Below are positions 1-39,893 of a stretch of DNA of 39,893 bases, piece after piece. A model generated the notes under the pieces. The model saw nothing but the letters and a program-made list of their open reading frames with translations. It had not been told where the DNA came from and searched no databases. Each line of letters opens with the position of its first letter. The first letter of the stretch is position 1. Both the position numbers and the translations under genes were made by a program. Source of the DNA: a virus; the UHGV virus genome UHGV-1364246. One strand, given 5' to 3'.

Positions 1-1019
1 GCGCCAGCCGCTTCAGGACGCAGACCACCATGACCCATAGCGTATTTACCAACAATCAGGTCGCCCTGAGCATCGACGTCACGGTCACGTTCCAGCGCCA
101 AGTCACGCAGCTTCACAGTACCCACAGCAGAACGGTGAGAGAACAGACCCACAACGTTGTCCATAGCAACTTTAACGTCGCCAGTAGCAGTTGCCGGGAA
201 TGCGTGTTTCTGACCGGAAGCAATAGTGATACCATCTTCACCACGAGTCTCACCAGCGCCACCTTGTACCAGATGCGGAACTTCAACAACAACGAAGCCC
301 ATCACGTTACGGATGTTACCAGTCTCTGGGTCAATCAGCGCAGCATAGTTAGCAGCGTTAGGCATCAGAGCAGCAAGGATTGCAGAGTAGTTGTCCGGCG
401 TGGTGTAGAAGTAACGGTCGCCAGCAGGAACGTAGTTGGAGGTCAGCTTCGCACGAGCAATGGTCAGTTGACCAATGATTGCTTCACCCAGTTTAGCTGG
501 GGTGTCGAGGTCAGCTTTCTTACCTACTTCAAGTACGGACGCAGTGCCCAGACCAGCAATGTTCTCGTTGGATGCAGCCGGGAGGTTACACAGGATAGCC
601 ATTTCAGCCAGAACCGCACCATCGGCAGCGATAGCCAGAGCTTCACCCAACTGGTTGGAATACTCGCCAGCCACGTCATAGTGGTTCATCGCGTCTTCAA
701 TGTCGAAAATCATCACATCGGCAGTCAGCAGACCATCAATGGTAATCACTTTCTCGGTATGTTTGATACCTTTACGTTTATCGGACAGTCGCTCACCCGG
801 AGCCAGATACACACCAGAGGTGCGACCCATGACCGGGAACTGAGCAGACTTACCGTTCTGAATGGTACGGACAATATGCTTGTCAGCAGTTACAGAGCGG
901 CGAGTGAATGCGGTCAGGACTTCACCAGCAAATACCTTCAGGAACAACGCCAGAGCGTCGGAACTGGATTTGCCTTTACCTTGGTCTGTACCAATTTTCT
1001 GACCCGGAACGTTTGCCAT
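1..1019 (-). CDS. Major capsid protein (gene 10A), N-terminal 339 codons; ORF runs off the window start and continues at 39893
   Basis: Minus-strand ATG at 1017-1019 with AGGAGA 8 nt upstream; translation MANVPGQKIGTDQGKGKSS...LFLKVFAGEVLTAF...KYAMGHGGLRPEAAGA closely matches recalled T7 gp10. Absent from the ORF track because no stop lies in this segment. Confidence 0.9.
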   Translation of the reverse strand, partial: MANVPGQKIGTDQGKGKSSSDALALFLKVFAGEVLTAFTRRSVTADKHIVRTIQNGKSAQFPVMGRTSGVYLAPGERLSDKRKGIKHTEKVITIDGLLTADVMIFDIEDAMNHYDVAGEYSNQLGEALAIAADGAVLAEMAILCNLPAASNENIAGLGTASVLEVGKKADLDTPAKLGEAIIGQLTIARAKLTSNYVPAGDRYFYTTPDNYSAILAALMPNAANYAALIDPETGNIRNVMGFVVVEVPHLVQGGAGETRGEDGITIASGQKHAFPATATGDVKVAMDNVVGLFSHRSAVGTVKLRDLALERDRDVDAQGDLIVGKYAMGHGGLRPEAAG

Positions 1020-7104: not shown

Positions 7105-9272
7105 TAGTGACACTCCTTCCACGTTGGTCCAATCTTACCTTCGGTATCAAGGACACATTTAAAGTTATAGAACTCACCCACCTTACGCATAGCAAGTTGA
7201 GCAATCCTGCGAATATCTTCGGCAATCTCCATGTTCCGAGCTGCAATCTGCAATTCGTCGTGGACCCATGCCATGTACGCAAAGTCTCCTTCCCAGCCGT
7301 GGACATACCCGGCCTCTTCGAGCATACGTTCAGTCTCTACAATCCAGTGCTTACAGACTACCGCACCATCGCCCTGAAGTAATGCGTTCAGTGCTGAGTG
7401 TGGAGACCGTATGTGGATACGTCGACCATCAAGTCCACGCAACCAACGGCGTTTCCACTTAACGATGTTCTCACCATCTACCCACTTAGAGTCTGATATT
7501 AACGTATTACTCACAGCTTCCCTGAGGTCCTTGATGGCTGGTGTACCCTCAATGAATTTCTTCATGAGAGCTGAACCTTCCTTCTTACCACCGCCGACTA
7601 TCAGTCCAATCTTAGCGGCCCCTGCACCATACAGGAACGCATAGATGAACGTCTTAGCGTTGTTGCGGAAAGCATCATGGTCGTGGCTCGACTTATCGCG
7701 TGGGACGTTAGGTGCTAACCCAGCGTTGACTGCGTTTGCCCAGTGGATGTCACCTTCGACTACAGTCTTCGCATATGCACCACCATCAAACGGAGCCGCT
7801 CGGTTCCCTAGACAACGAAGCTCAAGACCTGAAGCATCCACGCCTACTTGAATCCAAGGGTCTGGCTTGCCATCCTTCTTGTTCCACGCTGCACCGAAAG
7901 CACCACGGCAAGTCTCACCATATGGAGCACCGTTAGCCGGGACCTGAGCCATGTTTGGTGAGCTATGGGTCGCACGTCCTGTTACTGCACCACAAGGGTT
8001 GATTGAACCGTGCATACGTCCGTCTGGACCCACAAGTTTCAACCATGCGTTCTTACCTTCAGCAGCCTGACCGATGCGCTTCTGGACCACAAGATACTCA
8101 CGGACCAACTCTACACAAGCCTGAGCCTCTGCGTCTGGTAACTTAACGTGTTCTAACGTCTCGTCATCGACTACAGGTTTCCCAGTGTCAGTGAAGTCCA
8201 CAGGCTCCCAACCACGCTCCATCAGGACTTTCGCTAAGTGGTCTCCGCTTCCCGGATTAAATTCAACGTAAGTGATTGGCGTGAATGGTGCTCCCTCCAT
8301 CGTGTCTCGCGTATCGAGTTCACAAGGTTCGAGACCTAATCGTTGAGCTTTGTTCTTCGGCTTCTTAAAGATGCCACCGACCTTAGGATACACGACCCTC
8401 GGATACTTCGGAAGGTCCTTACCTGTCCGTGGATGCCTGAAGAACTCCTTGCCTCCCTTTGGTGCATACCAGCTACCGAAAGTAGAGCGCAGCTTGTCCA
8501 GTAACTCCGCACGTTTGACAGTGAGTTCACGATATAAGCCTTCGACCATCTCGGTGTTCATCGGATAGCCGTTACGCTCCATCTTCGCACAGGTCCACGC
8601 AGCATCATGTTCCAGACGCAACGCATAAATCTGTTCGAAAGCGAACTGTTCAGACTGGAAGTAATACTTGTCAGTCAGGAACTTCTTGAACAATGCCAGT
8701 GTGACCACAACGTCCTGAACGTTATAGTCCAGCATCTCCTGAGACGGGAACAACCATTCGTCCCCAGCCTTATATTCGATACCTTCGGCCTTGCACTTGG
8801 CAACGTAATCGTGTTTGTACTCACCCTTCATCTCACCGAGACGATAGCCCCAAGCCTCAAGAGACTGGCGTCCCATCATCTTAGGCGGCAGACGTCCAGC
8901 TTTCACCGCGCCTATGTCTGAGAACTTAATGTTGGGATACATCAAGCGGCCCAGCACCAAGGTATCAATCATCTTGTGTTTCGGGAAGTTAAATCGTTTC
9001 CCAAAGTACAGACGTTTCAGCTTGTCAATAGCCGGGACGTCATAGTTGATACCATTGTGGAATACCAGCATACCATCAGGTGATGCGGCAATCTCTTCCA
9101 CTTTATGAACATACTCTTTGAAGCCACCGACGATACCAACCATCGGAGCTACCCCATACTTAAGGGTCTCATTCGACTCGGCGTTAATCAGGACCCCGCA
9201 GTGGAACTGGGAGACTGTATCAAGGAGACCGTTGGTCTCGATGTCAGACCCATATACGTTACTTAAGTCCAT
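7104..9272 (-). CDS. DNA polymerase (gp5-like, family A with 3'-5' exonuclease)
   Basis: 722 aa; MDLSNVYGSDIETNGLL... exo motif; syntenic; size close to T7 gp5. Confidence 0.92.
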   Translation of the reverse strand: MDLSNVYGSDIETNGLLDTVSQFHCGVLINAESNETLKYGVAPMVGIVGGFKEYVHKVEEIAASPDGMLVFHNGINYDVPAIDKLKRLYFGKRFNFPKHKMIDTLVLGRLMYPNIKFSDIGAVKAGRLPPKMMGRQSLEAWGYRLGEMKGEYKHDYVAKCKAEGIEYKAGDEWLFPSQEMLDYNVQDVVVTLALFKKFLTDKYYFQSEQFAFEQIYALRLEHDAAWTCAKMERNGYPMNTEMVEGLYRELTVKRAELLDKLRSTFGSWYAPKGGKEFFRHPRTGKDLPKYPRVVYPKVGGIFKKPKNKAQRLGLEPCELDTRDTMEGAPFTPITYVEFNPGSGDHLAKVLMERGWEPVDFTDTGKPVVDDETLEHVKLPDAEAQACVELVREYLVVQKRIGQAAEGKNAWLKLVGPDGRMHGSINPCGAVTGRATHSSPNMAQVPANGAPYGETCRGAFGAAWNKKDGKPDPWIQVGVDASGLELRCLGNRAAPFDGGAYAKTVVEGDIHWANAVNAGLAPNVPRDKSSHDHDAFRNNAKTFIYAFLYGAGAAKIGLIVGGGKKEGSALMKKFIEGTPAIKDLREAVSNTLISDSKWVDGENIVKWKRRWLRGLDGRRIHIRSPHSALNALLQGDGAVVCKHWIVETERMLEEAGYVHGWEGDFAYMAWVHDELQIAARNMEIAEDIRRIAQLAMRKVGEFYNFKCVLDTEGKIGPTWKECH

Positions 9273-17398: not shown

Positions 17399-20080
17399 TT
17401 AAGCGAATGCAAAGTCTGAAGACAAGATGTCTTCGATATTCAGTTTACCTTTCTTCGGAAGCTCAGGCAACTTGTCGCGCTGACTCTCGTGAAGCTGGTA
17501 TTCGAACTGCTCGTAGAAGTCAAGCAGTACATCGTTGTCGCGGTAGGTCTCGACCATTGTCTCACGGACGCCACGGAACAGATACTCAGCGTCAGCCGGG
17601 ATGGTCCCGAAGCTATCGTGAATCACTGCGAATGACATCACACCATACTTGCGGTGCGTGTGGACTACAGTCTTGCGGAGGTGGCTGCCATCTTGTGAGT
17701 GGACGAAGTTCGGGCTAATGCCTGACTCCTGCTTGTGCTTGTCTAGCTCTTTCTTCGTGCCTTTGTTGACTGTAGGCTGAAGGTTGAATGACCCTAAGAA
17801 CATCAGGTTCAGACGAGTGGTATCCTTCTTGCGGTATTCCTGCCAGACCGGGAAACCATCAGGTGTGACCCAGTGTACTGGAAGGCAAGGCTTCAGGATT
17901 TCACCAGTCTTCTTGTCCTTCACTTCAGCAGCCAGCAGCTTGGCAGCACCTTGAAGCCACTTCATCGCGTCAACCGCAGCAACTACGGTCACACTCACAG
18001 CTTCCCAAATCATCTTAGCCATGAAGCGAGACGCTTGTCTTGGTTCAGTGAACATAGAGCCAGACCCTGAGTCAATCGCTGGCATCACGATGTCCTCGTA
18101 CACTTGGTCTGCGAATCCGTACTCTTTCGACCCGTAGGCCAGAGTCATGACCGAACGCTTAGTTACCTTGCGTGACATGCCGTAAGTCAGCCACTGCCTG
18201 GCCAGCTCTCGTGTCCCCAGCTTGAGGCGCTCGGTAATCTCACCAGTTTTCTTATCCTCGTGAGTCACCATCTCGTTGTCCGTACCGTTAACCAGCAGGA
18301 CTTTAAGCTCCTCCTCAATGCGGTCAGACACGATGCGGTAGATGTCTTGGACCTTACCGGAAGGCGTCAGGTTTACTGCATGTCCACCTATGTGGTCTCG
18401 AAGCATCGCGCTGAAGTGCTGAATCCCAGAGCAGGACCCATCGAAAGCTATCGGCAGCGAGCAGGAGTAAGACAAACCGTGGTGCATTACGCCAGCATAC
18501 TCGAAGCAGAACGCTAGGAAGCAGAACGGAGAGTCTAACTTACCCCACCACTCAATGCTGTCCATCGGTGCCTTAGCGGTAGCCATGATGTTGTCGTGGT
18601 TGTCTTCCACCCACTTGATGCGCTCCTCGAAGGTGACTTTATCAATACCCGCACAGTTTGCACCGTGGACCTTCAGCCATTTGAAACCATCAGCACCAAT
18701 AGGCTTACCGACTGCCAGAGTTAGGAGACCCTTCTGCATGTCGTTACCCTGAGGGTTGAACATCGGCACAGCGTAGACGCGACCACGCCAGTCCATGTTG
18801 TACGGGAACCAGATGGCCTTGAACTGAGAGAACTTGTTCGCTTGGTTAACGATAAAGCTCAGCGACAATCTGCGTGACTGTCGGGCCTTCTCTCGGCGGT
18901 AGATACCAGCAGCAGCCTTCTTCCATTCCTTGAGTTCCTCTTCAGTCTCACCCGCATAGTCTTCAGGCTTCAGCGGCTCCATCTGAGGGATGTCATCAAT
19001 AGGCGTGTTGTTCAACTTCTCTACCATGTTCACCACGTCCAGAACCTTCTTGTTCACCTTCCAAGGCGTATTCTGGATGATATTCACAGCGTCATAGACT
19101 TCAGGCATGTACACGTCTTCATAACGTGCCACCGCAGACTTAGACCCTAAGCGAATCAGTGGTAGTGGTCTGCGACCTTTGGCCCAGTACCCACCTCCTA
19201 CGACACCAGTCCACGGCTTAGGTGGAACGACACAGGGCTGGTAGACTGGAGCGATACCCGCAAGGCTGAATCCTCGTTGTGCCATCTTCTTGACCCAGAA
19301 GTCTGACAGGTGGACCATCTCGACATCAGCCGCTGCATTGCCAGCACCGTAACGCTTAAGCTCGACCAGTTGTGTTGACTGGATGACAATCTCAAGCATC
19401 TTGATTCCAACGTGGACAGCCTCGGTCGGACTCCAAGTTCCCCACGCATCTTCAAGTTGGCCTTGCTCCAGCATGGAGGTCTCAACAGCTTGCATGTAGG
19501 CTTTTTTGTAGGATGCCCCGGCGCGCTTGTTCAGGTTCTCAGCTATCGCCTTCTTGAAGTGCTCCTTCTCCTTATCACGGATGCGACCGAAGCGGATTTC
19601 ATCCTCAAGTGTGCGACCTATCGCGGAGGCCATCGGTGTAATCGGTATCCCTTCAGGCTTGACCAGCTTGGAGAGGATGACCTTCAGTATGATGACCGCA
19701 GCAGACTCACAGGAGATGCGCAGAGAGCGGTCCTTGACGGCCTTCTCTTCAGTGCTCAACATGGTGAACGCTACGCTAGGACGAGAGGTTGACAGCTTAC
19801 CGTCTGGACCTTCGTGCCACTCCTTGACGGCTTGCGCAATCTTAGGGACCAGAGTCTGCATCAAAGGCTTGGCGACCTGATTGTCTGCCAGTTCCCCGCG
19901 CTCAGTCTGTCGCTCAAGGTTCTTGATGAAACGTCGCTCGCCTTCAGTGTATGCCTCATGCTCAAGCTGAAGCTGTTTGACTGCAAGGTCTTGCCCGTAG
20001 TGGTCAGCCAGCAGGTTAAACGGCTCAATGGCGTTCGACACATCAGAGAAGTCGTGTTTGTCAATAGAGATGACGCTCAT
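17399..20080 (-). CDS. DNA-directed RNA polymerase, single-subunit (T7 gene 1-like)
   Basis: 893 aa; collinear with recalled T7 RNAP (PYNMDWRGRVYA, DGSCSGIQHFSAMLRD, HDSFGT, C-terminal FAFA); specificity-loop region reads LMFLGSFNLQPTVN versus T7 LMFLGQFRLQPTIN. Confidence 0.97.
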   Translation of the reverse strand: MSVISIDKHDFSDVSNAIEPFNLLADHYGQDLAVKQLQLEHEAYTEGERRFIKNLERQTERGELADNQVAKPLMQTLVPKIAQAVKEWHEGPDGKLSTSRPSVAFTMLSTEEKAVKDRSLRISCESAAVIILKVILSKLVKPEGIPITPMASAIGRTLEDEIRFGRIRDKEKEHFKKAIAENLNKRAGASYKKAYMQAVETSMLEQGQLEDAWGTWSPTEAVHVGIKMLEIVIQSTQLVELKRYGAGNAAADVEMVHLSDFWVKKMAQRGFSLAGIAPVYQPCVVPPKPWTGVVGGGYWAKGRRPLPLIRLGSKSAVARYEDVYMPEVYDAVNIIQNTPWKVNKKVLDVVNMVEKLNNTPIDDIPQMEPLKPEDYAGETEEELKEWKKAAAGIYRREKARQSRRLSLSFIVNQANKFSQFKAIWFPYNMDWRGRVYAVPMFNPQGNDMQKGLLTLAVGKPIGADGFKWLKVHGANCAGIDKVTFEERIKWVEDNHDNIMATAKAPMDSIEWWGKLDSPFCFLAFCFEYAGVMHHGLSYSCSLPIAFDGSCSGIQHFSAMLRDHIGGHAVNLTPSGKVQDIYRIVSDRIEEELKVLLVNGTDNEMVTHEDKKTGEITERLKLGTRELARQWLTYGMSRKVTKRSVMTLAYGSKEYGFADQVYEDIVMPAIDSGSGSMFTEPRQASRFMAKMIWEAVSVTVVAAVDAMKWLQGAAKLLAAEVKDKKTGEILKPCLPVHWVTPDGFPVWQEYRKKDTTRLNLMFLGSFNLQPTVNKGTKKELDKHKQESGISPNFVHSQDGSHLRKTVVHTHRKYGVMSFAVIHDSFGTIPADAEYLFRGVRETMVETYRDNDVLLDFYEQFEYQLHESQRDKLPELPKKGKLNIEDILSSDFAFA

Positions 20081-20149
20081 ACTTAAAGTCCTTGTTATTA
20101 GTCTTTCACTTAAAGTCTCTTTGGTCTTTCACTTGGAGTCTTAGACCTT

Positions 20150-20172
20150 GAGTCCTATAGTGATAGTTAAGT
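20150..20172 (-). promoter_or_regulatory. Phage-type promoter about 75 bp upstream of the RNAP gene (TTAACTATCACTATAGGACTC)
   Basis: Matches the -17..+2 core; GGA start as in this phage's class-II promoters; followed by a half R-site motif GACTCAAGGTC. Confidence 0.5.
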
Positions 20173-20177
20173 AAGAA

Positions 20178-20504
20178 TCACTTGCATATCAGTGGGATAG
20201 CGTGAAGATGACTGAAGTCACCATGAGACGTGTGCTTGATGGTTGACCGTTGGTCTATCGCCTTCCAGCCTGAGACTAAAAGTTTGCCATCGTCGGTTGT
20301 TGGTCGTCCACCATACGCCAGACACATCAGTTCGGACTTATGGCCCTCAGCCCGTAGTCGTGCCTGTAGTACACGGTCACGCTCCCGCTGTTGACGTGCG
20401 GTATGACTCGACGTTCCGTGACGATACCCGGTAGCCAGTAGGCTTAACATTTGCATGTCTGCGTCCATAGAGTGTACCAGATTAATCCCGTATGACTTGT
20501 TCAT
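20178..20504 (-). CDS. Hypothetical 108-aa early protein immediately upstream of the RNAP gene
   Basis: ATG at 20502-20504 with AGGAGAA upstream; His-rich C-terminus; no recognised homolog. Confidence 0.5.
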   Translation of the reverse strand: MNKSYGINLVHSMDADMQMLSLLATGYRHGTSSHTARQQRERDRVLQARLRAEGHKSELMCLAYGGRPTTDDGKLLVSGWKAIDQRSTIKHTSHGDFSHLHAIPLICK

Positions 20505-20506
20505 TA

Positions 20507-20932
20507 TTAATTCTCCTGAAGATATTTGAGTGCGCTTGCCAGAAGCTCTGGCGAATCTTTAAATTTTCCTAGACCAATGTTACACGATGCACACAATAAA
20601 CCTCGCACCTTTCCAGACTTATGACAGTGGTCTACGGCTAACCTTCTACCTGTCTCACAAGCACTACCGCAGATTTTGCACCCACCGCCTTGACCTTCCA
20701 GCATGGTAGTATATTCACCCTCCGTTATTCCATACCTAGACCTCAGGTGATAGCCTCTCTCCGTGCTTCGTGCTCTTTTCAATGAGTCGCCATTCCTGTG
20801 TTGTGACGTAACGACCGATGACACTTGACAGGGCTTGCAATATGTCTGTAGTCCGTCCCGCCTAGCCTTGTTCCTGCCAAACATAGTAGCATCCTTAGTC
20901 TCTCCACATTTGGCGCAGGTCTTTTCCATCAC
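20507..20932 (-). CDS. Endonuclease VII-family (HNH-like) protein with N-terminal zinc ribbon
   Basis: 141 aa; CAKCG...CKPC zinc ribbon, then LAVDHCHKSGKVRGLLCASCNIGLG, typical of the Endonuclease_7 family. Confidence 0.65.
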   Translation of the reverse strand: MMEKTCAKCGETKDATMFGRNKARRDGLQTYCKPCQVSSVVTSQHRNGDSLKRARSTERGYHLRSRYGITEGEYTTMLEGQGGGCKICGSACETGRRLAVDHCHKSGKVRGLLCASCNIGLGKFKDSPELLASALKYLQEN

Positions 20933-21126
20933 AGTTTGCTCCCAAGAGTTGCTATATCCCAGACGTTCGCTAGGTTGCGCATGAATCGTCCGTTAGGTTG
21001 ACGTACAGTCCAGCGACCCAGACGTACATAGTTGAATTTGTAGACTTTACGTGCCTTGTTGACGTCTCTCACCAGCACGTAGGCGATAAGTCCATAGCCT
21101 ATGGCTATCAATAGTGTTATACTCAT
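20929..21126 (-). CDS. Small hydrophobic early protein (65 aa, probable single transmembrane helix)
   Basis: MSITLLIAIGYGLIAYVLV... hydrophobic N-terminus; overlaps the Endo VII start (ATGA). Confidence 0.4.
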   Translation of the reverse strand: MSITLLIAIGYGLIAYVLVRDVNKARKVYKFNYVRLGRWTVRQPNGRFMRNLANVWDIATLGSKL

Positions 21127-21560
21127 AGTGATTTCCGTTTAATACAGTCGTATATCCCATACCCTATCAGCCAGATAACTGGCGCTAGACATACCCAATA
21201 TCCCACACCCATAGTTACCTCCTATTAATGCAAGTGGTAATCTTTGAGGCCACCTATCAGTTAGATGACCTCTCGCCTATCACTCAGTACCCGCCTGTTA
21301 GCGTTATGGTCAGGCTATGGTGATTAGCCACGTAGCAAGCCCCGCGCTTCATCATCTCGTAGCAACCATCGTAGAACGCCTGTTCACTGCTATAAGTTAT
21401 CTGGTACATGTTTACTTGTCCTCAGCGTGTAAGCTGTCGTGTATGAGCTTGCGGCCCTCATAGACCGCCTTCAGGAGACGCATAGTCGCATCGTGGTTTA
21501 ATTGCCCGGTCTTGACCATAATCCGGGCGTTGATGATGTGGTGCTGGCAGAGACCATAAG

Positions 21561-22085
21561 TTACCATCTTGATGACCTCACCTCTTGCAGCTTGGACACA
21601 AGGAAGAAGCAGTCCACCAGTATTAACTTGCCGTTCACGGCCCGTACATTGCGTGGGCTTATCTCAAACTGAATGTCAGACCCAAAGTTAGCGCAAGCAT
21701 CCATCGCCATCATCACATCCATCAGACCATCCCGCACAGTCTCAGTCTCAGACCTGTCGTGTGCAGCTTGGAATATCTCGTACCACTTGTGATACAGTTC
21801 AGCAGGTCTAGAGAATACCGGAGACCGTGAGAAGCAGTCTCGCAACACCTGATAGAGTTGCCATTGGTCATCATCTAAATGCGCCTTGAGACCTCGTGTT
21901 GGTGGCATGTAGTCCATCTCATACGTGCCTAACTCAATCATTTTGACTTCAGGGAACAGTGGAGACTCAGGGAACCATCCCCACGCCATACACTCCTTGA
22001 TTGGGTCTGAAGAGACCAGAATTACACGCTTCCCGCAGTCCTTCAGGTAGCACTTAGTGAACGCGCCTTTGCCTATCAGTTTCAT
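21561..22085 (-). CDS. Putative protein kinase-like early protein (short gp0.7-like kinase domain)
   Basis: 174 aa; glycine-rich loop LIGKGAFTKCY; C-terminal NVRAVNGKLILVD resembles the T7 gp0.7 segment NIMFSNGDVPYITD; first gene after the sigma70 promoters. Confidence 0.4.
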   Translation of the reverse strand: MKLIGKGAFTKCYLKDCGKRVILVSSDPIKECMAWGWFPESPLFPEVKMIELGTYEMDYMPPTRGLKAHLDDDQWQLYQVLRDCFSRSPVFSRPAELYHKWYEIFQAAHDRSETETVRDGLMDVMMAMDACANFGSDIQFEISPRNVRAVNGKLILVDCFFLVSKLQEVRSSRW

Positions 22086-22270
22086 CTTGTTTATCCTATA
22101 GTTAGTGACTATCAGTCAGGGCCTTCAGATGTAGACTCAAAGACCCTGTAGTTAGTCGCTATCGGCGCACATTAAGAGTTTATCCAGATTGTTAAAGAGC
22201 ATTCGCGTTGGCTGTCGTCGCCGTGCTATCCCGTTTCAGTGTTGGGACTCACTAATCTTGCCTGCCGTGT

Positions 22271-22299
22271 AAGTTACTACAGTCAAACCAGCTTGTCAA
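22271..22299 (-). promoter_or_regulatory. Sigma70-type early promoter (A-series-like): TTGACA, 17-nt spacer, TAACTT
   Basis: Minus-sense TTGACAagctggtttgactgtagTAACTT. Confidence 0.45.
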
Positions 22300-22425
22300 C
22301 CACTTTCTTAGCTCGCTTGCTGTAGTAACCTACCATCTTACTTAGTAGACCAGATATTCGCGCTGGTCACTCCGCATAGCCGATGTAGTTTATCAGTTCC
22401 GGCTCGCTGTACTGCTTGGTGAATC

Positions 22426-22454
22426 ATACTACTTTAAGTCTTACATCTTGTCAA
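22426..22454 (-). promoter_or_regulatory. Sigma70-type strong early promoter (A1/A2-like): TTGACA, 17-nt spacer, TAGTAT
   Basis: Minus-sense TTGACAagatgtaagacttaaagTAGTAT; upstream block TAAGTAGACAGCCTGATAAGTCG resembles recalled T7 sequence near A2. Confidence 0.6.
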
Positions 22455-22584
22455 CTACTTTCTGTCATCTGCCTGTTGTTCTTACGACTTATCAGGCTGT
22501 CTACTTAACCGTGATGACCCGGCGTCTTCACTATCCGGTGGTTGCCGTGTCGTGTTGACGTAAGCTATTAAGCCATAGTCTAGA

Positions 22585-22607
22585 CCTATAGTCAATAGGT
22601 AATTTGA
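22585..22607 (-). promoter_or_regulatory. Degenerate phage-promoter-like sequence near the left end (phiOL-like)
   Basis: Minus-sense TTACCTATTGACTATAGGTCTAG; only the ACTATAGG core is conserved. Confidence 0.3.
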
Positions 22608-22719
22608 GATAATATTGATTGAGCTATCGTCGGCCCCATGGTGTAAGAGGATATAGTCTTTGACTAACATGTCTTAGACCGTAAGTCTATAGCCTTTGTG
22701 TCTATTAACTGTGGGTCTC

Positions 22720-23045
22720 TGACTGTAGGTGTTGGTGTCTTATGGTTGAGACTGTAGGTTAGTGACTTATGGTCTGATACAGATAGAGACTCAAAGAAGA
22801 CCCATAGTCCCAACCTATCGTCCTGACCATCAGCCATAGCCTAGACCTATCGTAGACCTAACGTCTTGACCATTGGTCCAACCTTATGATAGACTGGGGT
22901 AGGGCCTTTGGTCTGGACTGAAAGAGGGCCTATGGGGAGACTTGAGGTTCTTGAACTGTGAGATGTGGTCTCAAACTTTTGGTCCAAAACTCATCGTCAT
23001 TACTGTAGGTCACAGCCACTGTAGGTCAAGGACCGTAGGTCAGGC
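22720..23045. repeat. Genome-end region: collapsed terminal repeat flanked by arrays of the short direct repeat (C)YGTAGGT; inferred physical left end at about 22963
   Basis: Five copies of ctgtaggt/ccgtaggt (22723, 22752, 23003, 23019, 23033), analogous to T7 ACCTAAAG arrays; minus-sense TCTCACAGT...CCCCATAGG at 22963 downward resembles the first bases of T7. Confidence 0.5.
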
Positions 23046-23200
23046 GACACTAGGATAGACCAATAAGTAGGATGACCCTAAGTGAGCTTCTCTTAAGATG
23101 TTACCTAAAGTCCTTGACTACAGTAGCTAAGGTCAGTAGAGTAGCGTCAGCTATGAACTGACCTTAGGTCTTACTTTCGTTGATTGTTACCATTACGGCG

Positions 23201-23359
23201 TTAATGACACTCAGACACCAGAGAACATACGAGAGTCTCGACCCACCCGACCCACTGACTTCCAGCAGTAACGCCAGCAGCAAGTAGAACAGCAGCAAGA
23301 AACCTGTATGTAGCTCGATTGGTCGCCAGAGCTTTAAGTACAGCTTTGGTCTTTGCCAT
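23201..23359 (-). CDS. gp19.5-like small membrane protein, 52 aa
   Basis: Translated by hand: MAKTKAVLKALATNRATYRFLAAVLLAAGVTAGSQWVGWV...; AGGAGGT 9 nt upstream; lies after the phiOR-like promoter. Confidence 0.5.
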   Translation of the reverse strand: MAKTKAVLKALATNRATYRFLAAVLLAAGVTAGSQWVGWVETLVCSLVSECH

Positions 23360-23547
23360 ATGCTACATACCTCCTGTATCTATGGTCGGTGACTATCTGT
23401 ATTGGAGGGATTATGATTAATATCACCCTCCTTCCTTCCTTCCATCGGTGCAAGCCTTAGGTAAGAACTCGGAGTCTGCCTCCTAAGGTCTTGCATAAAG
23501 TCTGCATATGTATATTCACTACAGTAATACTATAAGTAACCGGGGGT

Positions 23548-23570
23548 CTTCCCTATAGTGATAGTTAAGT
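23548..23570 (-). promoter_or_regulatory. Phage RNAP promoter near the right end (phiOR-like, GGGAAG start)
   Basis: Minus-sense CTTAACTATCACTATAGGGAAGA. Confidence 0.75.
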
Positions 23571-23664
23571 CCAAACTACTTGTAAAACAGTAGGTTAGAC
23601 TGGTAGTAACTATAGGTTACTAACCGCGTATTCATGCAGCTTTCACCCATAGTTATTCATTCAG

Positions 23665-25428
23665 TTAGTGGAACGTAACGTAGGACCCTAGTCCTAGCTC
23701 GTCGTCCGTATCGTGCGTTACCCGGACCCCATTGTCCCAGAACTCAGTGTGGATGGACTCGAATCCTTTCCGTGGGTTCTCCATCTGTTCCTCCAGCCAC
23801 TCCTCAGTGACTTCACGTTCGCCTTTGTTGGCATCCTTAGCCATAGACTCAACGAAGAACTGTACACCGATAGCCAGCGCATCAAGTCGGTCATCGTGTG
23901 CCAAGGCGCCACGTTCACGAGATATACGTGTCATCTGGTAGAAGAGAGAGTAGATAGGGTTACGAACACCATCCTTATCAGAGGCTGACTGGTAGTCTTG
24001 GACGATAGCAGCAGCGTTTACGATAAGTCGGTGAGACCCCATGATAGGCTCCAGAACGTCACAGATGCGTAGTTCTTTCTGACCCTTACTCTTCACTTCA
24101 GTTACAGCCGCAGGATGAATACGGGCAGCTACAGGCTTGAATAGCTCAAGGTACATACCATCACCGAAGTTACCCTCAATGACGTATTCGTTAACCTTCC
24201 ACTTACGACCAATCTTAGCCAAGGCTTCCAGCGTAGAGTCTTCATAGCCACCACGCATACCACCAACTTCCATAGCGAAGATGTAGCCGTTGAGCTGGTA
24301 CAGTACCGCATAGCCAGTTTCATCCTTACCACGACCACTAGGGTCAATGACCAGAATCTTCTGGGTGTACGAACTGAAGGCAGAACCTACAGTCTGATAC
24401 GTGTGGTATGAGTCACCCATGAGTCCAACGTTAGGAACGTCCTCACGCTTGTTCTGAGGGTTAGGCAACCATTGGTAGACCATTGGGCTGGACGCTGGGT
24501 CCAAGTCTGCTACGATAAGGTCACGGAGCTTCAGAGGGTACTTCTCGGCATCACTCAGGTTCGGGTTAAGCATGAACTGTAGAGCGAAACCAGCTTTACC
24601 GTACGACAACTCGCGTTCCTTCAGGTCCGTATCATCGAAGCGTACTTCATCAGTCGGACGCCAGTAGAAGGACTCAGGGTCCTCTTCCAGCTCTGCCTGA
24701 AGCATAGGAGCCAGACGGTCGCCGTAAGACTGCCAGTCCTTCCTGTCGCGTGGATAACGAGCGGGCCAGATAGTAGTGGTGTACCCACGACCTTCCAGCT
24801 CACGATACAGGGTCATCTCGTTCTGAGGAGTACCCAGATAGATGATTGTACCTCCCGGCTTCAGGATAGCGTCGAATTCTTTCACAAGCTCTGACAGACG
24901 GTCACGCGCAGCCTGAGTCGCTGAGTTGTTCGGAACTTCCACGTCATCGGCAATCAGGATGTCAGCACGACTACCAGTCAACTGACCAGTGATACCAACG
25001 GACTTAACCGAAGGTGAGTGGTCCGGCTTGGCTGGCCCAACATCAAAGCTGATAACCGCATCTCGTTGTCCCTGCTTAGGTTTGAGTTCCTGAAGCTGAG
25101 GCATGAGGTCGATGATTCGCTTGATGAAGATGGAGTTCGCATCGGCTCGTTCCTTTGAGGCCGACACAATCATGAACTTCAAGTCTGGGTTGTTCCATAA
25201 CTTCCAGACAACGAAGGCACACGTAATGAAGGACTTCCCTATACCACGGAACGCCTGTAGAATGAAGCGCCTGTTGTCCCCAGCCGATAGTTTCTTCGCC
25301 ATGTCAATCTGACAGCGAGTCGGGACCGGGAGTGACAGAGCTTTCCACAGGACGAACAGGAAGAACACGAAGTCTGACTTCATACGTGCAGTCATTAGCG
25401 CCTGACGCGCCACTAAGTCTTTACTCAA
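23665..25428 (-). CDS. Terminase large subunit (gp19-like)
   Basis: 587 aa; [28 protein letters not shown]...[18 protein letters not shown] (Walker A) closely matches recalled T7 gp19; apparent TTG start with AAGGAGGT 8 nt upstream. Confidence 0.93.
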
Positions 25429-26602: not shown

Positions 26603-26924
26603 AAAACCTCCAGTTTAAAGCGGGTCGTCCGTGACCCAAAGTTGTACCATACGTTGGTCAGCGTGTAGTTAGCCTCTACCTCCACAACCTTCGATCCTCT
26701 ACCCAGTTCAGGAATCCAATGGTGCCAGAGGTAGCAGTAATGGTCGTAACCACGTTAACGTCTTTAACAGTTCCGTCATCAGTAGTCAGAGTAAAGAGAT
26801 TGGAACCATCAGAGCCATTGATATTTGATGGTTTTAGCAACAACATCAGCAACCAAAACAACAAATCCCACAAGGAGGAAATGAGCCTCCTATGAAATTC
26901 GACGATTCAATACCCTTCTAATGA

Positions 26925-26950
26925 TAAAAATAACCCGCCAAAGCGGGGTT
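26925..26950. terminator. GC hairpin with flanking A/T runs immediately 3' of the tail fiber gene (possible bidirectional terminator)
   Basis: aaaaataaCCCGCcaaaGCGGGgtttattatttt; embedded in an AT-rich 355-bp gap between fiber and holin. Confidence 0.5.
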
Positions 26951-26957
26951 TATTATT

Positions 26958-29144
26958 TTAAAAAGTAGCACCCCTCCATGAGCAATCAACAATCCCACCG
27001 CGCACCATCTTCCACCGCATGTTGTACGATGCCGATGGTACAAGGCGGAGTCCTATTCCCAGATTCGGTGTCAGCTCGACCGCATTTATCCAAGCAGTTG
27101 ATGAGGTTGAAAATGTAAAAGATAGCTGCTCCGTATTTGTGTAAAAATCATCAACGCAAGTTGTTATTGATGCTGTAGTATTTGCAGTATCCGCGCCGTT
27201 AAAATAATACAGCTCAACAGCCACGTACCCGTGGTTCTTCATCCTTGTAGCAAACACGCCTCCGGTGTTTCTTGCCGCGATACCACCCTGTTTGAATGTG
27301 GTGTTACGCTCTCCCTGTGCGCTCCCGGCATTGATAGTCTGGAATGGTGTGACATCGGCGGAACTGTACTTGTCATTGTACAACTGCATAGCCCCACCCA
27401 TTCTATCCGTGTAAAATGCGTACACATCTATGTCATAAGGTTTTTGTCTAGGTACAGAATTGAATTCTTTCCCTAAAGCGTACAAATCAGTATCGGTGGT
27501 CAATGTGTTGTGTGTGTTTACGATGAGCTGTGTTTCCCACGAGAACGCCGCATACTCACCATCGCCCATGTTAAAAAACTTCTTAGCGAAAGCTATCTGT
27601 TTTGCTTTGTTTTTGAAGTTGTCAGAACCACCATTTGCATCAGTTGTAAACAATCCAACGCAAGGTACAATTCTTGATGTAGGGCATTTATACTTTAGCT
27701 CGGCCCACCCAATAACAGCCTGTCGTTTATTCCTGGCATCATCCCAGTCATCATGATAATACGCGTCTGCAAATATAATATCGTATCCAGTACCATCATA
27801 ACCGCCCGGGTGTGTATTTGAATCAAATCCAAAAATACCATGTTCAGCTATGCATAATGATTTTTCTGTGAATGATTTAAATGCCGCGATGCGGGTTTCT
27901 TGCGCCGCCCTGCTAACTGAATTATTTTGTGGTTCATCAAACAAATAATAGCCGATAACACAATCTCTACTGTCTAAGTCGGTAGCCGGAGTGTTTGTCT
28001 GTCCATATATTGGCCCACCAAGTATAAGTTTAAGCCCAACAGCTTCGGCGGCGTTACAGGCTTTTTCCATATTCCCACCGCTTGTCCACGCTTGTCCGTA
28101 GTGTATTAGCGTATTAAACCCGGCAGTTTTTAGTTGTAACATATCACATATATCAAACACGCGATGGACATATACAGCCTTCATGAGCGAATGATTTACA
28201 GGGGTTTCACTGTCAAGCTCACAAGGAACGTTTGGTAGCCTTGTGTATGTGATGGCGGCCTTTCCTGTCAATCTGGCTCCTTCAGGCCAATCAAAACTCG
28301 ATAATGTCGTGGCACCGGATATGTGTGCGTACCCGTGGTCCGATATAGCTGATAGAACCGCGTCTTTACCATCAACACCACTACCATAAACATACCCGTA
28401 ATTAGAGATGTCTGCGCGGTCTAAATTTAATCGTTGTTGAACAGTTAATCCGTTATTAGTCCCAACTAAATTGGAACCATTATTTGTTTTAAGTGCGCTT
28501 CTTAATGAAGCATCACCAACACTAACCCACGCACCTAATCCAATCCCACCGGAAGTTTCAGGAGTTGAACCAGCAGGAACGTTCTTTGGAAGCGTACCAC
28601 CCCAGCGGTAATAATCACCATCCTCTTCCCATAGCAGGACCTCGTTCCATGTTGTAACGTTGAAGCCTTTCTCGAAGGAGCGACGGGTAATATAGCCAAA
28701 TAGACCAGCTGCCTTGATACTCTCAGCAATTCGTCGTGCTTCGTCCTCGCTATCCTTAGCGTTGCCAGCAGAGCTACCAGCAGCATCGGCATATTCCTTC
28801 GCTAAGTCAACCGTTTGGTCTCGACCTTCTTCTGCAATATGGATAGCCTGAAGCTCTGCATTGGTCAGGTCACTAGCTGTCAACACTGAGCCATTCCTGA
28901 AGTCTACCACTAAGTCAGTTCCAGTCTGACGGTGAATACGAACGATGTCGAAACCTGATTGGTCAACCAACATCTCAATCATCGTTGGATTAATGAATCG
29001 GTAATCTCGACCAACTTCCAGTACACGGTTCAGGGTAGGGTTAGAGCTATTCACCAGCGTAACAACAACAAACGTTCTGGCTAGGTAGTCGAACTCAATC
29101 CTGTACTGAGTGTTTCCTGAAGGGAATTGTGTAATCGTGGACAT
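26958..29144 (-). CDS. Tail fiber / tailspike: gp17-like N-terminal adaptor fused to a glycoside-hydrolase-like (putative polysaccharide depolymerase) C-terminal region
   Basis: 728 aa; the N-terminus (up to about LVDFRNGSVLTASDL...AIHIAEEGRD) matches the T7 gp17 anchor; the remainder is unrelated to T7, with a TIM-barrel-like YLFDEPQ motif; coding DNA from about 27000 to 28500 is visibly AT-richer than the rest of the genome. Confidence 0.8.
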   Translation of the reverse strand: MSTITQFPSGNTQYRIEFDYLARTFVVVTLVNSSNPTLNRVLEVGRDYRFINPTMIEMLVDQSGFDIVRIHRQTGTDLVVDFRNGSVLTASDLTNAELQAIHIAEEGRDQTVDLAKEYADAAGSSAGNAKDSEDEARRIAESIKAAGLFGYITRRSFEKGFNVTTWNEVLLWEEDGDYYRWGGTLPKNVPAGSTPETSGGIGLGAWVSVGDASLRSALKTNNGSNLVGTNNGLTVQQRLNLDRADISNYGYVYGSGVDGKDAVLSAISDHGYAHISGATTLSSFDWPEGARLTGKAAITYTRLPNVPCELDSETPVNHSLMKAVYVHRVFDICDMLQLKTAGFNTLIHYGQAWTSGGNMEKACNAAEAVGLKLILGGPIYGQTNTPATDLDSRDCVIGYYLFDEPQNNSVSRAAQETRIAAFKSFTEKSLCIAEHGIFGFDSNTHPGGYDGTGYDIIFADAYYHDDWDDARNKRQAVIGWAELKYKCPTSRIVPCVGLFTTDANGGSDNFKNKAKQIAFAKKFFNMGDGEYAAFSWETQLIVNTHNTLTTDTDLYALGKEFNSVPRQKPYDIDVYAFYTDRMGGAMQLYNDKYSSADVTPFQTINAGSAQGERNTTFKQGGIAARNTGGVFATRMKNHGYVAVELYYFNGADTANTTASITTCVDDFYTNTEQLSFTFSTSSTAWINAVELTPNLGIGLRLVPSASYNMRWKMVRGGIVDCSWRGATF

Positions 29145-39108: not shown

Positions 39109-39674
39109 TAGTCCCTCCCGATGTCGGACATCATGTTGTAGCGACCAGTGTCCATCTCGTATTCCATGACCTGCTGATAGAGTTCTGCTTCCTGCTCACG
39201 AAGGTATAGCTCTGACTCTGGGCTACCGAAGAACTTAGCGTTGAACTCACGGCTTGCCTTGGTAACGATGTAGTCCCTGAATACCACAGGCATCTCAGAG
39301 AACGGTTTCATCTCAACAAGCTCTACCGTTATAGGGTCGGTGAAAGTGGTTGACTGAGTGGACAGGTCGTACAGGTATCCACCCATGTTGCTGTAGTAGC
39401 TGGTGGCCCCGGCAGTCATTACACGAAGGTATGACGGCAGGAATCGAATCCTGTTGTCTTGGACATCAGGTGTCAGGACAGCAGCTTCATTAATGTTAAA
39501 GTTCCATCCTTTAGCTTGGACCTGACGATTGACACGATGCAGGATACGTTGAGCGTTCGAGACATCAGCGTTGCCCTCATCAAGCTGTAGGACTGCTGGT
39601 TCACCGATAGCAGCTAACATATCGTTGATGGCATCTAAGTCATCGTTAGCATTCAGTGGAATGTATTGAGCCAT
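39108..39674 (-). CDS. Tail tubular protein A (gp11-like)
   Basis: 188 aa; LAAIGEPAV...NAQRILHRVNRQVQAKGWNFNI...FRDYIVTKASREFNAKFFGSPE...MEYEMDTGRYNM matches recalled T7 gp11. Confidence 0.9.
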   Translation of the reverse strand: MAQYIPLNANDDLDAINDMLAAIGEPAVLQLDEGNADVSNAQRILHRVNRQVQAKGWNFNINEAAVLTPDVQDNRIRFLPSYLRVMTAGATSYYSNMGGYLYDLSTQSTTFTDPITVELVEMKPFSEMPVVFRDYIVTKASREFNAKFFGSPESELYLREQEAELYQQVMEYEMDTGRYNMMSDIGRD

Positions 39675-39692
39675 AAGTCTCCTCTCACTTTA

Positions 39693-39735
39693 AGCAAAAA
39701 ACCCCTCAAGCACCCGAAGGCACCCAAGGGGTTTC
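39693..39735 (-). terminator. Tphi-like late terminator between capsid and tail tube A genes
   Basis: Minus-sense CCCCUUGGGUGCC-UUCG-GGUGCUUGAGGGG hairpin followed by UUUUUUG; same position and form as T7 Tphi. Confidence 0.8.
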
Positions 39736-39737
39736 AA

Positions 39738-39890
39738 TTAGTTGTTGGACTCAGCCAGTTTAGCGGCCCTGTTCGCAGCACGAGTACGCGCAGCTTTCTG
39801 TTGAGGAGTTAGAGTCTCCTCTTCAGGTGCAGCCGCTACTGTAGCGACGTTAGGTTGGCTAAAGGTGCTTACGCCGCTGGGCTGAAAACC
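39738..39890 (-). CDS. Minor capsid protein 10B C-terminal extension, reached by -1 ribosomal frameshift at GGTTTTC
   Basis: Slippery heptamer G GTT TTC at 39884-39890 (minus sense). The -1 frame reads FQPSGVSTFSQPNVATVAAAPEEETLTPQQKAARTRAANRAAKLAESNN-stop (stop 39738-39740), resembling the recalled T7 10B tail. Confidence 0.6.
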   Translation of the reverse strand, partial: GFQPSGVSTFSQPNVATVAAAPEEETLTPQQKAARTRAANRAAKLAESNN

Positions 39891-39893
39891 AGT
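39869..39893 (-). CDS. Major capsid protein 10A, C-terminal 8 codons plus stop (continuation of 1..1019 across the circular junction)
   Basis: Joining position 1 to 39893 keeps the frame: ...EAAGA-A-LVFSPAA-TAA, stop at 39869-39871; total about 347 aa, close to T7 10A. Confidence 0.6.

Follow-up and report, generated by a model that had tools for sequence, protein, structure and literature searches.

The terminal repeat of a K1F-like phage, held in single copy at the concatemer junction of a very probably complete genome written as a rotated circle

The DNA analysed here, UHGV virus genome UHGV-1364246 (39,893 nucleotides, hereafter the window), is very probably the complete genome of a K1F-like phage (Kayfunavirus, T7 group), reverse-complemented and written out as a rotated circle in which the terminal repeat is kept once. 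The same high confidence extends, jointly with this reading, to the point at which the window opens, which appears to be arbitrary and lies inside capsid gene 10. The permuted layout is a product of assembly and writing and not a biological circular permutation. It is an artefact of how a well-understood type of genome is represented, is already known as such and adds nothing new on phage biology. An earlier, sequence-only reading of this DNA had proposed a complete, circularly permuted genome with a collapsed terminal repeat, and its proposal is borne out by the colinearity with phage K1F and by the finding that both K1F ends fall on one and the same stretch of the window.

The open reading frame map of the whole window places the long ORFs on the minus strand (one plus-strand antisense shadow set aside, see below), in the order of T7-type phages and with a single-subunit RNA polymerase and the gp18/gp19 terminase among their products. 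When the whole genome of Escherichia phage K1F (NC_007456, the type species of Kayfunavirus) is compared with the window by blastn, the matches form an unbroken colinear series on the minus strand, which includes the following blocks:

window 22963-22441, minus strand: K1F 1-581
window 3746-1, minus strand: K1F 18434-22154
window 39893-39106, minus strand: K1F 22155-22941
window 23172-22786, minus strand: K1F 39318-39704

Most of the matched blocks have 84-97% DNA identity and two are lower, at 71-77%; in layout the window differs from the K1F record in being rotated, reverse-complemented and provided with a single copy of the repeat. A megablast search with the region around the junction matched 228 phage records, mostly from Escherichia and Salmonella phages of the genus Kayfunavirus, and the best match per record had 80-99% identity, mostly 90-95%. 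No identical record was found in the phage collection, where the best relatives reach about 92-95% identity over 66-73% of a 10-kb query. Several parts of the window depart from K1F. Tail fibre gene 17 (window 26704-28498) is unrelated to its K1F counterpart in the distal part, and the 728-aa protein it encodes matches tail fibre families in the N-terminal part only, so that the window does not hold the K1F endosialidase. The HNH endonuclease insert of K1F gene 5 is missing (window 7205-7261), and the first early gene (21568-22079), which encodes a 174-aa protein of phrog_11084 (unknown function), has no DNA match to the ocr-like gene 0.3 of K1F.

The two ends of the window meet within the capsid gene, which lies on it in two parts:

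1..1019, minus strand: first 1019 nt of capsid gene 10, running off the low end of the window
39869..39893, minus strand: last 25 nt of capsid gene 10 including the stop codon (39871-39869), in frame from position 1

The protein encoded by the joined parts, 347 aa in length, matches the major head protein family phrog_267 over residues 1-346, and window positions 1 and 39893 correspond to the adjacent K1F bases 22154 and 22155, with neither gap nor overlap. A search for an overlap of 8 nt or more between the two window ends found none. Since the K1F bases are adjacent and both the frame and the family match of gene 10 run across the boundary, the window boundaries are not real ends; the capsid gene had indeed been described beforehand as split by them. 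A true linear molecule that ends at the window boundaries is given next to no probability: what speaks for it is the presentation of the window as a linear string, and against it stand a boundary that splits gene 10 shortly before its stop (25 nt), the abutting K1F bases with the frame and family match that cross it, and the position of the conserved end motif of the family, which is internal, at 22963. Two further features were seen at the end of gene 10. A GGTTTTC slip site lies 4 nt past the window boundary (39884-39890, minus strand), after which the -1 frame stays open for 48 further codons (39744-39883, minus strand; QPSGVSTF...AESNN), as would be expected for a capsid frameshift product of the T7-like 10A/10B kind, and a terminator consisting of a hairpin and a T run follows the gene 10 extension at about 39735-39700. 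The only long ORF on the plus strand (30-1043, 337 aa) was rejected as a gene, being the antisense shadow of gene 10.

The genome ends themselves are found on the other side of the map, where the left end (K1F 1-581) and the right end (K1F 39318-39704) fall on the same stretch of the window, which means that the repeat is present once:

22785..22963, minus strand: single collapsed direct terminal repeat, 179 bp (K1F base 1 falls on 22963 and base 39704 on 22786)

Read on the minus strand from 22963, the window agrees with K1F at every one of the first 43 nt. The repeat opens with the 18-mer TCTCACAGTTCAAGAACC, which occurs once (22963-22946, minus strand), and no second copy of the repeat start was found in the whole window with up to 3 mismatches allowed. 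Both boundary motifs, CCACA followed by TCTCACAGT on the left and GAGTCTCT followed by ATCTGT on the right, are intact, and the 179 bp from one to the other align to K1F without an indel, which places the single copy at 22963-22785. The deposited boundaries of relatives differ by 1-5 nt, and the right edge is for that reason uncertain by a few nucleotides. From homology to the experimentally defined termini of members of the group, the mature left end would lie at 22963 (beginning TCTCACAGT) and the mature right end at about 22785 (ending GAGTCTCT), and the virion DNA would be about 40,072 bp long. The sequence-only reading had pointed to a motif at 22963 on the minus strand that resembles the start of T7, and had predicted an end near that position and a repeat of 160-250 bp. 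The motif proved to be there, with TCTCACAGT and CCCCATAGG at their T7 offsets, and homology puts the end at 22963 and the repeat length at about 179 bp, within the predicted range.

The ends of relatives allow this placement to be compared with many records. A scan of IMG/VR for the 18-mer TCTCACAGTTCAAGAACC returned 30 stretches, among which seven linear contigs have the end motif at base 1, 2 or 3 and again near the right end. Six of the seven repeat their left end without a mismatch at the right, over 179, 181, 184, 189, 190 and 191 bp, and four of these six stop precisely at GAGTCYCT, the next bases at the left end being ATCTGT; the left and right copies of the seventh record (L013/L037) differ at 29 positions over 196 nt. 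The linear records with exact repeats appear to include the Citrobacter phages SH3 (39,444 bp) and SH4 (39,274 bp). Run-off sequencing on virion DNA has fixed the ends of SH3, SH4 and SH5, with reported repeats of 183 bp (SH3) and 190 bp (SH4), and K1F is cited in that study at 179 bp (PMC4925675). The deposited K1F record has a repeat of 178 bp vs. the published 179 bp, and the repeat of SH3 extends to ...CTATCT. A repeat that has the proposed ends and is substantially longer or shorter than 179 bp, for example by reaching into the flanking arrays of variable length, would fit the range of 166-231 bp that separates the two boundary motifs among relatives, as well as the few nucleotides by which published and deposited boundaries disagree. 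Such a length is improbable for the window, where both motifs are intact, 179 bp apart and free of indels relative to K1F.

Providencia phage EPr2 (OM256482) carries an annotated 179-bp 'DTR (short)' with the same boundaries as the repeat of the window. The annotation appears four times in that record, including matching annotations at the right end, and bases 1-679 run from the repeat through 321 bp of gene 19.5 and right-end DNA into the repeat again (L001 1-679; L002 884-1562). Either the record was built wrongly or the junction region is truly duplicated in this phage; because the layout is odd, the annotation of EPr2 is not relied on alone. Two IMG/VR stretches stop close to the same place. 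One (L023, 3300045988_000088) ends exactly 179 nt past the repeat start, the motif not being found at its other end, and the physical terminus is the apparent point at which its assembly broke off; another (L019, 3300045988_000061) ends 223 nt past the repeat start.

The majority of relatives are likewise deposited with the junction in an internal position. This was seen in at least 128 of 234 matching GenBank records, counted as one contiguous match over at least 80% of a 361-bp query that spans the junction. Phages with exact terminal repeats are known to yield artificial circles on assembly, in which the repeat has doubled read depth, and in their replication concatemers successive genome lengths are separated by a single repeat copy (PMC5000459). 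In K1F-like phages the virion DNA is a linear molecule with the same short direct repeat at its two ends; an assembler merges the two copies into a circle with one, and this one-copy arrangement is also that of the concatemer junction formed in replication. Headful packaging offers another route to such assemblies, since phages of that type also give circle-closing contigs (PMC5000459); their virion DNA is circularly permuted and terminally redundant, and it would have no fixed end at 22963. We consider this very improbable here, given the T7-type terminase of the window, the grouping of K1F-like terminases with packagers of short direct repeats (PMC5582158), the fixed ends measured on virion DNA of close relatives at the same motif, and the conservation of the end-flanking sequences as far as T7.

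With the preferred reading, a single copy of a short terminal repeat at a concatemer junction, the DNA around 22963 can be read from the right-end genes into the left end. On the right-end side lie the following features:

23665..25428, minus strand: gene 19, terminase large subunit of the T7 type (phrog_38, E 1.4e-131)
23549..23575, minus strand: predicted phage RNA polymerase promoter cttaactatcACTATAGGgaaga, between genes 19 and 19.5 and pointing towards the junction
23201..23359, minus strand: gene 19.5, 52 aa (phrog_2193, E 1.5e-24, full length)
23003..23040, minus strand: three ACCTACRG repeats (CYGTAGGT on the plus strand), in right-end unique DNA before the repeat
22964..22993, minus strand: pre-terminus block TGAGTTTTGGACCAAAAGTTTGAGACCACA, 30 nt, directly before the terminus

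The gene 19 region has about 96% DNA identity to K1F. The predicted promoter matches the consensus of the window itself, CTAAACTATCACTATAGG, which is present at about 10 intergenic sites, and ACTATAGG occurs 13 times vs. 1.1 expected. By its place and sequence this promoter is the likely counterpart of T7 phiOR, which is annotated in T7 between genes 19 and 19.5, and it would presumably serve the same function. The product of gene 19.5 has a weak match to T7 gp19.5 (33% identity, E 2e-5), and phage PE3-1 carries this 159-nt gene too, under the label gp19.5. The matches agree with the expectation that gene 19.5 lies on one side of the junction and early-promoter-like sites on the other; the single repeat copy between them is the arrangement of a concatemer junction. 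The non-coding stretch that was said to join them is real, but longer than the roughly 500 bp first given, measuring about 605 bp from the stop of gene 19.5 to the first early promoter box; from the same stop to the first early ORF the distance is about 1.1 kb. An alignment of 25 loci, together with the bases that precede the right-end copies in linear records, shows the block TGAGTTTTGGACCAAAAGTTTGAGACCACA to be kept by almost every Kayfunavirus relative in the comparison, its first 22 nt being the most constant. A few loci differ from it at up to 7 positions, mostly in the last ten bases, with TTCGAGAGTCCA in place of TTTGAGACCACA.

Short direct repeat arrays flank the terminal repeat on both sides, as is expected of a concatemer junction. 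The (C)YGTAGGT arrays noticed at the junction in the sequence-only reading stand out in the counts as well: CYGTAGGT (ACCTACRG on the other strand) has 13 copies in the window vs. 2.8 expected, a number reached in 0 of 100 shuffles, and five copies in one orientation fall within the 318 bp of 22723-23040. These copies flank the terminal repeat, with three at 23003-23040, two at 22723-22759 and none inside it, and they are interleaved with related CCATAAG units. The array at 23003..23040 is conserved in relatives.

After the repeat, the left-end side begins with these features:

22779..22784, minus strand: ATCTGT, putative pause signal directly after the repeat, counterpart of T7 class II ATCTGTT
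22709..22773, minus strand: ACCATAAG, ACCTACAG and ACCCACAG units in an array that follows the terminal repeat, within left-end unique DNA
22567..22595, minus strand: first early host-RNA-polymerase promoter-like site, with a TTGACT -35 box, counterpart of T7 A1
22426..22454, minus strand: second early promoter-like site, TTGACA-17-TAGTAT, 10 of 12 consensus matches
22271..22299, minus strand: third early promoter-like site, with a TTGACA -35 box and a weak -10 box, called by position and homology only

The distance from the end of the repeat to the first early promoter box is 189 bp in the window (22596-22784), the shortest among the relatives measured, and 205-368 bp in the others; the array after the repeat was compared in eight loci (L003, L004, L012, L013, L021, L028, L031, L034). 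In PE3-1 this array contains a run of AACAACCATAGGTCTC units. The first early site was assigned by its position and its similarity to T7 A1 (TTGACT...CTATAGG) and to K1F, and was missed by the consensus scan because of its weak -10 box. The -35 boxes of the three sites are spaced by about 141 and 155 bp, which resembles the spacing of T7 A1-A3 (498, 626, 750). The stretch from the repeat to the first early promoter showed no phage promoter of the phiOL type, a difference from T7. An occurrence of ACTATAGG at 22592 was rejected as a phage promoter, being without the upstream consensus.

At the right boundary of the repeat, T7 reads CCCT followed by ATCTGTTACAG and the window CTCT followed by ATCTGTATCAG. 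The ATCTGT after the repeat is kept in all relatives examined; in the window the motif is ATCTGTA (22784-22778), its seventh base differing from T7 ATCTGTT, and in the PE3-1 record CTATCTGT is annotated as 'concatemeric junction'. In T7, ATCTGTT is the strictly conserved class II pause and termination signal of the concatemer junction (bioRxiv 10.64898/2026.02.12.705533), where the complex of T7/T3 polymerase and lysozyme is described as pausing, engaging gp18/gp19 and starting maturation and packaging (PMC3276506). If the analogy with T7 holds, transcription from the promoter upstream of gene 19.5 would cross the junction, the polymerase would pause at the ATCTGT signal, and the terminase gp18/gp19 would be recruited there. 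The sequence elements of the junction are present in the window and conserved among its relatives; pausing, terminase recruitment and repeat duplication in this phage may be expected from what happens in T7.

Between gene 19.5 and the three ACCTACRG repeats lies one further element of the junction, whose function is less readily assigned:

23127..23167, no strand assigned: perfect 11-bp inverted repeat from a repeat search (CTAAGGTCAGT, 19 nt, ACTGACCTTAG), a candidate hairpin

Its centre is 184 bp ahead of the start of the terminal repeat, and folded as DNA it reaches -11.3 kcal/mol (z -2.8). The arms are invariant in 25 related Kayfunavirus loci while the sequence upstream varies, and the loop consists of one of three unrelated modules among these loci, the inner stem being kept in each. 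Among relatives the centre lies 154-194 bp before the repeat start, mostly 182-186 bp. The inverted repeat of T7 at the homologous spot is weaker, about 189 bp before the right repeat, and its fold is not significant (z -1.4). Chung, Nardone and Hinkle are said to have reported in 1990 a hairpin end that arises on T7 concatemers close to this place, a site to which the inverted repeat of the window may be linked. By this analogy it might be the K1F-group counterpart of the T7 hairpin-end site in concatemer processing, which we hold to be a possible but rather doubtful assignment; a role at the RNA level, for example as a 3' stabiliser of the gene 19.5 transcript, is equally possible. A reading as a class I terminator was dropped because no T run follows the inverted repeat. 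A consensus scan found no intrinsic terminators in 22000-23700, and a search for Rfam families in 21900-23800 found none at E up to 1. Should the hairpin reading be true, the element would offer a comparative handle on the duplication of the terminal repeat, a step that to our knowledge has never been fully resolved.

These results are of use mainly for bookkeeping. The record needs to be turned to the minus strand, opened at 22963 and extended at its right end by the 179-bp repeat, which would give a record of about 40,072 bp with gene 10 unsplit and comparable with those of K1F and T7. The packaging and processing signals are also located by this, for use in engineering or rebooting of the phage.

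Set against known systems, the junction of the window is closest to those of the K1F group. K1F has the same 43 nt at the start of its left end, and the repeat is 179 bp in the window and in the published K1F; the boundary motifs, the pre-terminus block, the inverted repeat and the ACCTACRG arrays of the window are likewise found in K1F, SH3, SH4 and SH5. Not common to the window and K1F are the distal part of gene 17, gene 0.3 and the HNH insert of K1F gene 5. The junction of T7, which has a 160-bp repeat, differs in several respects: most of the interior of the repeat has diverged, the flanking arrays are built of ACCTACRG or CCATAAG units in the window and of CCTAAAG in T7 (CCTAAAG/CCTAAGG arrays in the same place before the repeat), and the seventh base of the pause motif is changed (ATCTGTA vs. 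ATCTGTT). Both have an inverted repeat some 185-190 bp ahead of the terminal repeat, of a different sequence and, in the window, of a far more perfect form. What T7 and the window share is the framework of the junction, namely TCTCACAGT at 1-9 and CCCCATAGG at 27-35 of the repeat, a right boundary of CTCTG.GTC.CT followed by ATCTGT, short-repeat arrays on both sides, a phage promoter upstream that points across the junction, and three host-polymerase promoters (promoter-like sites in the window) that follow it.
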